DNA of 64,000 nucleotides from Tagaea sp. (lineage in GTDB: Bacteria > Pseudomonadota > Alphaproteobacteria > CACIAM-22H2), in assembly GCA_965279525.1 (NCBI GenBank), contig CBDIIB010000003.1, positions 224,001-288,000 on the forward strand. The letters are read 5' to 3'. A program made the position numbers and the translations under genes. This document shows, piece after piece, positions 14,202-17,116 of the stretch (position 1 is its first letter; each line of letters begins with the position of its first letter). The notes under the pieces were generated by a model. That model had not been told where the DNA came from. It made no database searches and saw only the letters and a program-made list of their open reading frames with translations.

Positions 14202-14999
14202 ATGCGCAGGTTGTTTCCGACCGAGTTCATCTTCCAGATCGCATCGCTTCTCGTCTCGTTCATCGTCGTGCACGCGTTCTACGTTGCCGAGGTGCGCCCG
14301 AACGCCGAGATTTTCCTCACCCAGGAGCGCGCCAAGGCGTCGATCGATCCGTCTTACGAAATGCAGCAATCGATCTTCGTGATCCTTCGCGACTACGAGC
14401 AGGAAGCATGTTTCGTGCTGATGTTCTGGGCGATCGCGATCCTCGGATACAAAGGTTACAAAGTTTACCGGCAGCAGCGGCAGCTCGAGCTCGATCTGGT
14501 CGGGTTACCCGAGGAGGCGACGGTCACCGTCGAGACCGCACGCCAGACCTCGACCTTGATCCGAAAACGGCTCGACGTGGAGCAGCAGGATTTCCTGCTC
14601 TCCCGGTCGATGCTTGCGGCGATCGATCGGTTCTCGGTGACACGGAACGTCCAGGACGCCTCCAGTGTCGTGCACACGATCTGCGATGCCGAGTCCGAGC
14701 GGCTCGACACGGACCTTTCGATCATCCGCTATGTCGCGTGGGCAATTCCTTCGATCGGCTTCATCGGCACGGTCCGGGGCATTGGCGACGCGCTGACCAA
14801 GGTGCAGAAGGCCGTGGCCGGCGATATCACCGGCGTTACGGACAGTCTTGGAACCGCGTTCAATTCGACACTCATCGCCCTGCTGATATCGATCGTGCTC
14901 ATGTTCGTGATCCACCAGATGCAGTCTGCGCAGGAAAAGCTCGTGCTCGACACGCGGCGCTATTGCGACGATTGGCTTGTCCGTCGCCTCAGAAGCTAG
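14202..14999 (+). CDS. MotA/TolQ/ExbB proton-channel family protein
   Basis: Four hydrophobic segments; signature WAIPSIGFIGTVRGI and GTAFNSTLIALLISIVLM. Confidence 0.92.
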   Translation: MRRLFPTEFIFQIASLLVSFIVVHAFYVAEVRPNAEIFLTQERAKASIDPSYEMQQSIFVILRDYEQEACFVLMFWAIAILGYKGYKVYRQQRQLELDLVGLPEEATVTVETARQTSTLIRKRLDVEQQDFLLSRSMLAAIDRFSVTRNVQDASSVVHTICDAESERLDTDLSIIRYVAWAIPSIGFIGTVRGIGDALTKVQKAVAGDITGVTDSLGTAFNSTLIALLISIVLMFVIHQMQSAQEKLVLDTRRYCDDWLVRRLRS

Positions 15000-15017
15000 G
15001 CGGCCGAGGGAGATGGC

Positions 15018-16112
15018 ATGAAGGGCAGGCGCGAAGCACCCGGGGGGCTGATATCGTTCCTCGACGTCATGTGCTGCGGCTTCGGTGCCGTCGTTCTTCT
15101 TGTCGTCATCCTGAACGGCAATCTCGTACAGAAGCGCGAGACGCAGTCCGAAGCGATGCGGGAGGAGGTCAGGCAACTCACCCAGCTGGAGTCATTCGCA
15201 CGGCAGGAATTGGCCCAGACCGGCGCCGAACTTGCGGGCGTCGAGGAGCAGAGGGCCTCGGTCAGCGCCCAGGCGGCACGGCTTGAGGCAAGGCTGCGCG
15301 ATACGCGCAGCCGGACCCAGGAAGTCCAGGCGCGGGCGGAGGCGCTGCAATCCTCCATCGCGACACTCCAGACGCAGAGTGCGGCGGTCGAGCAGGCCGT
15401 GACGCTGCTGAGATCGAAGGCGACCCAGCAATGGGATGGCGGGCGCCGGCCGGTCGGATTCTCCGGCGATGGCCAGAGGCAGTATTTGACCGGGCTCAAG
15501 CTCGGCGGCGAGCGGACGCTGATCCTGCTCGACTCGTCGGCAAGCATGCTCGACGAAACCATCGTCAACGTGGTGCGGTGGCGGATCACGGAGCCCGCGA
15601 TCAAGCGAACCGCGCCAAAATGGCAGCGCACGACGCGGACCTTGCATTGGCTCGTCGCGAATCTTCGACCCGGCAAGCAATTCCAAGTCTACCAGTTCAA
15701 TGCCTCCGCATCTCCACTGCTTGCCGGAACGGAAGGAAAGTGGCTTAGCACCAACGATACGGCGAGCCTGACTGGCGCACTGGCGGCCGCATCACAGATC
15801 GTGCCTGCCGGTGGCACCAGCCTGCATCGGGCATACGCGGTCATCGCGCAGATGAAACCGCCGCCGGACAGCGTTGTCGTGCTTACGGACGGACTGCCGA
15901 CCCTCGGCGTGCGCGAAGAGCCCGGCCGGCTTGTCTCGGCGGAAGAGCGGCTGACCCTTTTCAGCGATGCGATCCGGCTCATTCCGGGATCGATACCGGT
16001 AAATACGATCCTGTTTCCGATGGAAGGGGATCCCGCGGCGGCAGGCGCTTTCTGGCAACTTGCGCTCATGACGCAGGGCTCGTTCATGACACCGGCAAGG
16101 GATTGGCCGTGA
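15018..16112 (+). CDS. ExbD/MotB-like TM + coiled coil + vWA domain protein (paralog 1)
   Basis: Basic N-tail, TM ISFLDVMCCGFGAVVLLVVIL (Asp16), ~100-aa coiled coil, vWA with LLDSSASM, GGTS, VLTDG (MIDAS). Confidence 0.85.
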   Translation: MKGRREAPGGLISFLDVMCCGFGAVVLLVVILNGNLVQKRETQSEAMREEVRQLTQLESFARQELAQTGAELAGVEEQRASVSAQAARLEARLRDTRSRTQEVQARAEALQSSIATLQTQSAAVEQAVTLLRSKATQQWDGGRRPVGFSGDGQRQYLTGLKLGGERTLILLDSSASMLDETIVNVVRWRITEPAIKRTAPKWQRTTRTLHWLVANLRPGKQFQVYQFNASASPLLAGTEGKWLSTNDTASLTGALAAASQIVPAGGTSLHRAYAVIAQMKPPPDSVVVLTDGLPTLGVREEPGRLVSAEERLTLFSDAIRLIPGSIPVNTILFPMEGDPAAAGAFWQLALMTQGSFMTPARDWP

Positions 16113-17116
16113 TGCGAAAGGCGCGCCGGGAAGCGGAAACCTTCAGCCTTTCATTCCTCGACATCATCGCGTGCGGGTTCGGGGCAGTGATCCTGCTTCT
16201 GATCATGACGCTGGCATTCGAGCCGAGCACGATCCGGGAGGTGGTCAGGAATCTTGAAACAGAAGCCGCCCAGAGCCGAGCCAGCCGTGATTCGCTGAAC
16301 ACGGAACGTCAGGCCCTGTCGCGCGAATTGCAGCAGAAGCGGGACGACCTGTCCCGGATGCAGGCGCAGATCTCGTCGTTGAGTGCGGAGATGGATCGTG
16401 CCGACAGGCAATTCGGAACCGTCCGGGCAAGTGCCGAGACCAACGTCCGCATCGAGGAGCAGCTGAAGAACGTCCAGCAGTCGCTGACCGAAGAAATGCG
16501 CCGGCTGATGGGGCGCCCGGAGGAGCGGAAGCCCAACCTGGATGCGCCGATCGGCGGGATACCGGTCGATAGCGAATACATCATCTTCATCATCGACACG
16601 TCGGGAAGCATGAAGATCGGGGCCTGGCCGCTGGTCGTGCGCAAGGTGCAGGAAGTTCTCGAGGCCTATCCGAAGGTAAAGGGATTCCAGGTCATGAATG
16701 ATGTCGGGACGTATATGTTCCCGACATATGCCGGACAGTGGATTCCCGATACGCCCGGGCGCCGATCGGTGGTTCTGAGCCAGCTCCAGAACTGGAACAG
16801 CTTCAGCCGGAGCAACCCGGCACCGGGCATCATTCAGGCGATCAGGACGTTCTATCGCCCCGACCAGCCGACCAGTCTTTTCATCTTCGGCGACGACTTC
16901 AACGGCACGAGCATCGACGAAGTGGTCAATGTCGTCTCCCAAAGCAATCGCCGCGACGCGCAGGGAAACGTGCCGATCCGGATCCACACATTCGGGTTTC
17001 CGGTATTGCCTGTTTACACCAAGCAGATCGAGAATTTCACCCGCTTCGCCCACTTGATGCGAACCCTTGCGGAGCGGAATGCGGGAACTTTCGTCGGCTT
17101 GAACTCGGTTCGTTGA
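16112..17116 (+). CDS. ExbD/MotB-like TM + coiled coil + vWA domain protein (paralog 2)
   Basis: TGATG coupling; TM LSFLDIIACGFGAVILLLIM (Asp17), coiled coil, vWA with IIDTSGSM and IFGDD. Confidence 0.85.
   Translation: MRKARREAETFSLSFLDIIACGFGAVILLLIMTLAFEPSTIREVVRNLETEAAQSRASRDSLNTERQALSRELQQKRDDLSRMQAQISSLSAEMDRADRQFGTVRASAETNVRIEEQLKNVQQSLTEEMRRLMGRPEERKPNLDAPIGGIPVDSEYIIFIIDTSGSMKIGAWPLVVRKVQEVLEAYPKVKGFQVMNDVGTYMFPTYAGQWIPDTPGRRSVVLSQLQNWNSFSRSNPAPGIIQAIRTFYRPDQPTSLFIFGDDFNGTSIDEVVNVVSQSNRRDAQGNVPIRIHTFGFPVLPVYTKQIENFTRFAHLMRTLAERNAGTFVGLNSVR

Follow-up and report, generated by a model that had tools for sequence, protein, structure and literature searches.

Can an ion-driven membrane motor be built with vWA domains in place of the ExbD- or OmpA-like domains of its B subunits? 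The question is raised by a locus in the window, the whole 64,000-nucleotide stretch of Tagaea sp. DNA analyzed here, in which the gene for a channel protein (A) is followed by two related genes, B1 and B2, whose products consist of a short basic tail, a transmembrane (TM) helix, a long stalk, and a vWA head. Motors of the MotAB/ExbBD/TolQR type power flagella, TonB-dependent uptake, the Tol-Pal system, gliding and type IX secretion, and Zorya. A first-pass annotation of this DNA had proposed that B1 and B2 are B subunits of such a motor, and the analysis leads to a similar reading, to which we give a probability of about 0.7: A, B1, and B2 would form an ion-driven motor of the 5:2 type, whose axle, a heterodimer, ends in a stalk-borne double vWA head and which works with five other envelope proteins. 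A conserved eight-gene envelope operon occupies positions 7897–17116, and the three genes lie at its 3′ end.

A is a member of the MotA/TolQ/ExbB family. It matches Pfam MotA_ExbB (PF01618) with an E value of 6.4e-14 and a score of 52.2 bits (cut-off 22.9), and its top NCBIfam model is TolQ, at a score far below the cut-off of that model. The start was placed at the ATG at 14202, within an open reading frame (ORF) of 14091–14999, and 49 homologues align from that ATG. Residues Pro183, Gly186, Gly189, Thr190, and Thr223, which make up a P-x-x-G-x-x-G-T motif and a second threonine, are each invariant in the 50 aligned sequences. In an alignment of the A profile with TolQ (8odt; alignment E value 0.11), Thr190 and Thr223 fall on two TolQ threonines, those of the GTV and IAT sequences, and the pore-lining threonines of TolQ are described as essential residues in the main text of Williams-Jones et al. 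(Mol Biol Evol 2025;42:msaf138, PMC12204202). A further invariant residue of A, Asp208 (50/50), is in a G-D-I-T-G-V-T loop between the last two hydrophobic helices.

B1 and B2 both start with a basic tail of 10–13 residues followed by a hydrophobic helix. The strings SFLDVMCCGFGAVVLL and SFLDIIACGFGAVILL, together with the DSSAS and DTSGS motifs of the heads, were all found at the expected codons, and the two genes do share, as had been claimed, a short basic tail and a TM aspartate in a like context. Lack of conservation of this aspartate would have spoken against a motor; in alignments of 67 B1 and 50 B2 sequences it is invariant (Asp16 of B1 in 67/67 and Asp17 of B2 in 50/50). The C-G-F-G run that follows is equally constant in B1, where Cys20, Gly21, Phe22, and Gly23 are each present in 67/67, and somewhat more variable in B2, with Cys21 in 49/50, Gly22 in 48/50, Phe23 in 29/50 (replaced by Ile in 14 and Val in 7), and Gly24 in 50/50. 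A profile of the 55 N-terminal positions matched 2264 representatives of 50%-identity clusters at E ≤ 0.001, 1072 of them at E ≤ 1e-10. The best 150 of the 2264 matches also match the B1 or the B2 profile without exception, and none of these 150 is longer than 364 residues or joins the C-G-F-G helix to another type of head; 111 are shorter than 150 residues and are probably fragments. Because these best matches are all B1/B2-like, the helix can be taken as the family signature that it had been suspected to be. The other possibility that would have counted against a motor, that the segment is a cleaved signal peptide, was rejected because the segment contains a 22-residue hydrophobic stretch without a small −3/−1 site and hardly varies between phyla, in contrast to the true signal peptides of the lipoprotein and the small peptide in this operon, which are not conserved and vary freely; judged on these features of its sequence, the segment is unlikely to be removed.

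The gene context of B1 and B2 was determined in 57 related loci from species-representative genomes, which span Alpha- and Gammaproteobacteria, Desulfuromonadales and other "Delta" lineages, and one member of the Puniceicoccaceae. For linkage counts, all ORFs of the loci were searched with the proteins of the window, and loci in which B1 is flanked by 8.5 kb or more upstream and 3 kb or more downstream, 25 in all, were treated as full loci. A adjoins B1 and B2 in 51 of the 57 loci, so that a MotA/ExbB neighbor, which might have proved mostly absent, is the rule; in five of the six loci without an adjoining A, a contig ends at or near the B genes, 0–1170 nucleotides upstream of B1. B1 and B2 thus occupy the gene position of ExbD, TolR, or MotB. 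The genome, which is 97% complete, has three PF01618 genes and, in a search with PF02472, a single ExbD gene, which adjoins another of the PF01618 genes on contig C2; the third PF01618 gene encodes a flagellar MotA with a MotA_N domain. The B motif S-F-L-D-V-M aligns, aspartate on aspartate but without statistical significance, with the P-F-V-D-V-M of 21 ExbD sequences from relatives. The full-length proteins have no Pfam match to the ExbD/TolR family (PF02472), and therefore the claim is that B1 and B2 work like ExbD, based on gene position, topology, and the invariant aspartate.

As compared with the ExbB-ExbD, TolQ-TolR, and MotA-MotB motors of 5:2 stoichiometry, the locus has in common the PF01618 membership of A, the basic N-terminal tail of B, a B gene beside A, and a single TM helix with an aspartate in an F/L-D-V-M context. 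It differs in having two distinct B subunits rather than a homodimer, in the ~105-residue stalk and vWA head of each B, in the lack of an ExbD/TolR fold or an OmpA-like domain, and in the residues after the aspartate, which are L-V-L-L in ExbD and C-G-F-G here.

The AlphaFold2 (AF2) model of B1, calculated from the 67-row alignment, has a mean predicted local distance difference test (pLDDT) score of 79.3 and consists of a single helix (residues 22–141) and a head (residues 166–364) in which 10-residue blocks over 171–360 average 87–97. A heptad-rich stalk of ~100 residues had been reported, and it is seen here as ~105 residues in which the hydrophobicity of B1 and B2 alike has its peak at a period of exactly 3.5; the B1 value was reached by 15 of 2000 shuffled sequences and the B2 value by none of 2000, and in B1 the region is part of the long model helix. 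The heads score 23.4 and 22.2 bits with Pfam VWA_2, below its cut-off of 27, but the Rossmann-like vWA fold is clear: a Foldseek search with the B1 model gave 185 PDB matches at E ≤ 0.001, led by 4fx5, ITIH1, CLCA1, α2δ, and BatB, all with probability 1.00, and precomputed PF13519 and/or PF13768 assignments are found on many of 120 homologues among the matches listed. A PDB search with the B1 sequence returned designed coiled coils alone, at E > 0.5. The residues of the metal ion-dependent adhesion site (MIDAS) are conserved in both heads, with Asp172 in 65/67, Ser174 and Ser176 in 67/67, Thr/Ser267 in 65/67, and Asp291 in 67/67 of the B1 sequences and Asp162, Ser164, Ser166, and Asp261 in 50/50 of the B2 sequences, and both are predicted to bind metal. 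No Pfam or NCBIfam match to a C-terminal OmpA-like peptidoglycan-binding domain was found in B1 or B2, in agreement with the view that vWA heads with DxSxS-type MIDAS motifs stand in place of ExbD or OmpA-like domains.

The heads also bring to mind BatA and BatB, two adjacent TM-anchored vWA proteins with matching folds: the structures matched by B1 include BatB (3ibs) and an aerotolerance vWA membrane protein from Bacteroides (4jdu), and a tetratricopeptide repeat (TPR) protein is co-encoded here, as in the bat operon, which includes TPR, MoxR, and DUF58 proteins. B1 and B2 might then be ordinary membrane-anchored proteins of this type that share an operon with a TolQ-like channel, with another role for the aspartate and no 5:2 motor, and the lack of significant homology between their TM helices and that of ExbD would be as expected. 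However, the aspartate is present in 117 of 117 helices and its 16 surrounding residues are nearly invariant, which would not be expected of a simple anchor, and A would be an orphan with no B subunit at all. The operon contains neither a MoxR ATPase gene nor a DUF58 gene, and the bat operon, for its part, has no MotA/ExbB gene, no TM aspartate signature, and no stalk. We regard this explanation as improbable.

The proposal that the B subunits form a heterodimer is supported by a structural model. B1 and B2 are paralogues, with 26% identity by BLASTP (E value 7e-12) and an hhalign probability of 99.8% (E value 1e-28) over 237 columns that extend from the TM helix through the stalk to the middle of the head, and B2 follows B1 in 25 of the 25 full loci. 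When full-length B1 and B2 were modeled as a complex, each chain being given its own alignment, the ipSAE score was 0.84 in each of three runs, as against 0.00 for the best of three controls; in the benchmark, this mark was reached by 116 of the 157 solved complexes, as against 2 of the 215 mismatched pairs, a guide that is only rough here because alignments made for this analysis were used. The runs share at least 41% of their contacts, and the pLDDT of the partner is at least 68. The confident interface is formed by residues 156–160 and 332–364 of B1 with residues 147–151 and 290–332 of B2, which are C-terminal parts of the heads. In this model, B1 and B2 are predicted to form a head-to-head heterodimer.

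The same core has been described, again as a prediction. In the main text of PMC12204202, the only full-text source found for this architecture, "TPH-vWA" proteins are reported as TM-tethered vWA genes, mostly in heterologous pairs, that are tightly linked to tolQ homologues without tolR or exbD. They have a "transpore helix" with a conserved aspartate that, in an AlphaFold 3 (AF3) A5:B2 model, is located inside the threonine ring of A; they were found in Proteobacteria and Verrucomicrobia, and their function is stated to be unknown (PMC12204202). Relative to the class as set out in that text, no core difference was apparent: TM-tethered vWA genes are beside a tolQ-like gene without an adjoining tolR or exbD, the pair is heterologous, the aspartate of the transpore helix is invariant, and there is no S-H-L-S motif, the B1 and B2 TM helices having no histidine. 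A, B1, and B2 belong to the TPH-vWA class, a membership that rests on these shared features, and their reading as a motor is already in print as a prediction (PMC12204202). The main text of that paper contains none of the terms sulfatase, formylglycine, GldK, and PorK, and therefore the eight-gene operon, the peptide, and the head-to-head dimer are not described in it; the annotation names of the operon parts were not found together in the full-text literature.

In the motor that we favor, which would be of the MotAB/ExbBD/TolQR type and driven by ions, probably protons, a ring of A would enclose the TM helices of one B1 and one B2, so that the invariant aspartates would face the invariant Thr190 and Thr223 of A, and the passage of ions would rotate the A ring relative to the B axle. 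Each B subunit would contribute a ~105-residue stalk, roughly 16–18 nm long if fully helical, and a vWA head replacing the ExbD/TolR/OmpA-like domain. The heads, presumably periplasmic, would pair side by side close to the outer membrane as a single heterodimeric unit in which both MIDAS sites are intact. Through the metal of these sites they would most likely bind an acidic group on another product of the operon, and the leading candidate for this group is the invariant aspartate/C-terminal carboxylate of a 79-residue exported peptide; a protein with PEGA repeats and a formylglycine-generating enzyme (FGE) fold and a lipoprotein are alternatives. Torque or tension would in this way be passed to a complex close to the outer membrane. 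If so, an axle that bears metal-dependent adhesion heads on a periplasm-spanning stalk would be a new means by which membrane energy reaches the outer envelope. Judged from the 2264 cluster representatives matched by the TM-helix profile, the class is large; it is conserved from Alphaproteobacteria to Verrucomicrobia. The window offers a compact eight-gene version in which Asp16, Asp17, the two MIDAS sites, and the C-terminal aspartate of the peptide can be changed by point mutation.

Several observations weigh against this motor. A PDB search with A, as a single protein or as a 50-sequence profile, gave nothing at E ≤ 0.01, and the sole solved structure that matches A is TolQ, at the E value of 0.11 given above. 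The TM helices align with that of ExbD aspartate on aspartate, but with hhalign probabilities of 4.6% (E value 0.0088) for B1 and 0.8% (E value 0.069) for B2, and the first 50 residues of B1 and B2 have no Pfam ExbD match at E ≤ 1. The stalks are outside the confident B1:B2 interface; therefore a two-stranded coiled coil is not shown by the model, and the preference for a heterodimer over a homodimer is based on the constant pairing of the B1 and B2 genes. Insertion of two B helices into a ring of five A chains would be by analogy with the AF3 model in the main text of PMC12204202, and the TPH-vWA motor class as a whole is a computational prediction of 2025. The identity of the head partner is a guess. 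Finally, one locus with both flanks present, L052, has B1 and B2 but no A.

L052 is otherwise well populated: it carries the genes for the TPR protein, the PEGA-FGE protein, the peptide, a further gene (X, described below), B1, and B2, with no detectable A within ~9 kb on either side.

The features of the operon are listed in Table 1. The eight genes are on the + strand and tightly packed, with gaps or overlaps of −22 to +20 nucleotides between neighbors. For B2, the candidate starts are the ATG at 16112, which overlaps the B1 stop (TGATG), a TTG at 16103 (giving 337 residues), and a GTG at 16109. Every product other than A, B1, and B2 has a signal peptide, a lipobox, or a TM helix. Among the 25 full loci, B2 is present in 25; A, the PEGA-FGE protein, the TPR protein, and the 285-residue secreted protein in 24 each; and the lipoprotein in 19. 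No other flanking genes are conserved in the loci beyond sub-lineages (at most 10 loci each).

Table 1. Coordinates of the operon genes and key codons within the window
Feature	Position	Strand	Remarks
Secreted protein, 285 aa, Gly/Ser/Ala-rich middle, first operon gene	7897..8754	+	overlaps next gene by 4 nt
Lipoprotein, 442 aa, probably outer-membrane	8751..10079	+	lipobox Cys23
483-aa protein, N-terminal TM helix and TPR-like helical region (TPR protein)	10100..11551	+	TM at 11–29
812-aa protein, FHA-like cytoplasmic domain, one TM helix, PEGA repeats, C-terminal FGE-sulfatase-fold domain (PEGA-FGE protein)	11530..13968	+	
79-aa exported peptide	13952..14191	+	C-terminal tail P-x-D-[I/M]-COOH (here ...SMPNDM)
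A subunit, MotA/TolQ/ExbB-family channel protein, 265 aa	14202..14999	+	PF01618
B1, 364 aa: basic tail, TM helix, stalk, vWA head	15018..16112	+	stalk about 33–141; head about 166–364
B1 Asp16 codon	15063–15065	+	
B1 DSSAS	15531–15545	+	
B2, 334 aa from ATG: TM helix, stalk, vWA head	16112..17116	+	paralogue of B1
B2 Asp17 codon	16160–16162	+	
B2 DTSGS	16595–16609	+	

The 79-residue peptide is present in every one of the 44 loci whose sequence includes the PEGA-FGE gene through its 3′ end together with at least 300 further nucleotides. Its ORF is preceded by a ribosome-binding-like site, GGCGAG, and ends 10 nucleotides before the start of A. In the tail, Pro(−4), Asp(−2), and Ile/Met(−1) are each found in 46/46 sequences, Phe(−5) in 43/46, and Val(−7) in 42/46. 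The tail is a candidate MIDAS ligand because an invariant aspartate stands next to a free C terminus, as a MIDAS would bind; a TPR carboxylate clamp is an alternative receptor. In the literature available in full text, we did not find the conserved operon context, a peptide with a fixed P-x-D-[I/M] tail, or the head-to-head dimer described.

The 812-residue protein has matches to PEGA (E value 3.8e-40, in four stretches) and FGE-sulfatase (E value 4.9e-38) and a TM helix at 153–171. Its top NCBIfam model is GldK/PorK (1.7e-25), far below the cut-off. In an alignment to human FGE, the C-x4-C that we take to be the catalytic cysteine pair falls on R-T-G-S-(gap)-L, and the protein thus lacks the cysteines of a formylglycine-generating enzyme; PorK also matches the domain (1.7e-12). 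The N-terminal domain of the family is weakly FHA-like, with a Pfam FHA match in 2 of 17 members (best E value 0.0092). About 24 gammaproteobacterial loci, in addition to L009 (8645–9940) and L033 (8677–9972), have a gene X of ~430–450 codons directly before B1; the protein has no Pfam match, and FHA is found on 4 of its 30 nearest Atlas clusters. Gene X is confined to loci in which the PEGA-FGE protein is without its ~150-residue N-terminal cytoplasmic domain, and because it occurs only there, the two may be interchangeable cytoplasmic modules. The PEGA-FGE N-terminal domain gave no phmmer match to the gene X products of the gamma loci, and no copy of gene X was found in the genome of the window with that of L033 as query.

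Of the remaining products, the 483-residue protein matches TPR_2 with an E value of 6.2e-5, under the cut-off. The 285-residue secreted protein has no Pfam or NCBIfam family; the gene for a homologue immediately precedes that of the lipoprotein in 34 loci and, of the full loci, is found in 24 of 25. In the lipoprotein, the lipobox Cys23 is invariant (27/27), and the AF2 model (pLDDT 83.6, predicted template modeling score 0.79) has an α/β domain followed by a long helical hairpin with a hydrophobic, Gly/Ala-rich tip. Weak fold matches to FlgT, LptE, PelC, the TolB N-domain, and CsgG (best E value 2.7e-4, TMq about 0.2) are a lead only. A TraT match from the Atlas search, with a score of 0.76, was taken as chance; the other matches were unnamed lipoprotein clusters.

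These envelope proteins allow the same complex to be read with the opposite logic, in which the vWA heads are a static anchor, like the peptidoglycan-binding domain of MotB, and the rotating A ring works on a rim-bound TM partner, as with TolA or TonB. The TPR and PEGA-FGE proteins would be suitable partners, since each resembles TolA and TonB in having one TM helix near the N terminus and an extended periplasmic portion, and each is linked in 24 of 25 full loci; moreover, the periplasmic domain of B is the anchor in known 5:2 motors. However, rim-bound transducers carry an S-x3-H motif, according to the main text of PMC12204202, and this motif is missing from the TM helices of both proteins. 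Such an arrangement seems to us unlikely, and we return to the axle with a force-transmitting double head.

One extension of the force-transmitting axle, which is tentative and may well be wrong, is that the eight genes encode a single trans-envelope machine of a kind not yet described, in which the double vWA head on the B1/B2 shaft of a TolQ-type motor holds the tail of a dedicated periplasmic peptide via MIDAS and, by way of the peptide or directly, drives an outer-membrane-proximal assembly of the FGE-fold/PEGA protein and the lipoprotein, in a PorLM-PorKN-like layout, for export, surface movement, or outer-membrane maintenance. The likeness to the GldLM/PorLM and PorK/GldK-PorN proteins of type IX secretion is one of architecture only: both have an inner-membrane motor and a two-chain periplasmic shaft directed toward an outer-membrane-proximal complex, and both have a co-encoded FGE-sulfatase-fold protein without catalytic cysteines. 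In contrast, A is TolQ-like rather than GldL-like, the B subunits here lack GldM domains, and neither PorN nor a type IX cargo signal is present. PorK is a lipoprotein, whereas the FGE-fold protein here is TM-anchored, has PEGA repeats, and by its sequence stands closer to true FGEs (6e-19) than to PorK.

The system is sparsely distributed. The B1 profile (E ≤ 1e-20) matches 19 of 401 genomes sampled across the phylum and 8 of 212 genera, counting the genome of the window itself; among 21 genomes searched, it matched none of the 12 other species of the genus and none of 8 relatives of the same class. The G+C content of the operon is 0.626, as against 0.667 in the rest of the window, and this low value and the absence from the 12 other species are compatible with horizontal acquisition. 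Of 34 candidate stretches on viral contigs, none was confirmed as a relative, and none was found in 72,556 plasmid records. The system is thus an accessory trait of the chromosome with a patchy distribution, and it was possibly acquired by transfer. Operons with about 40% identity are found in four metagenome bins titled Klebsiella pneumoniae (L006, L036, L047, and L053) and one titled Klebsiella sp. (L033), which group with gammaproteobacterial bins from lakes and groundwater; the organism labels look doubtful.

Such a patchy distribution and deviating G+C content would also be in accord with a Zorya-like role in anti-phage defense, with a MotAB-like motor as the sensor of damage to the envelope, and A has weak matches to ZorA (PADLOC E value 6.8e-5, NCBIfam 0.004). 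The Zorya ZorAB proteins share with A, B1, and B2 a MotAB-like core with a long helical extension. In Zorya, however, it is the A subunit that has the long tail, which is cytoplasmic, and peptidoglycan is bound by ZorB, whereas here the stalk is on B, and neither ZorC nor ZorD is present. A defense function is weakly supported because no nuclease or other effector is encoded, all products are envelope proteins, and PADLOC gives only the weak ZorA matches for A and coiled-coil noise, with no matches in PHROGs. The lack of confirmed relatives on viral contigs and plasmids and the nature of the flanking genes, which do not resemble a defense island, also argue against it, and we consider this explanation highly improbable as compared with an envelope motor.

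The flanks of the operon are unrelated to it. Upstream (4864–7680) are genes for a PotA/PotB-like polyamine ABC transporter, and downstream (17185–20839) a divergent AsnC/Lrp regulator gene is followed by an ORF of 1017 codons (17786–20839), whose product was taken by eye as PutA-like.

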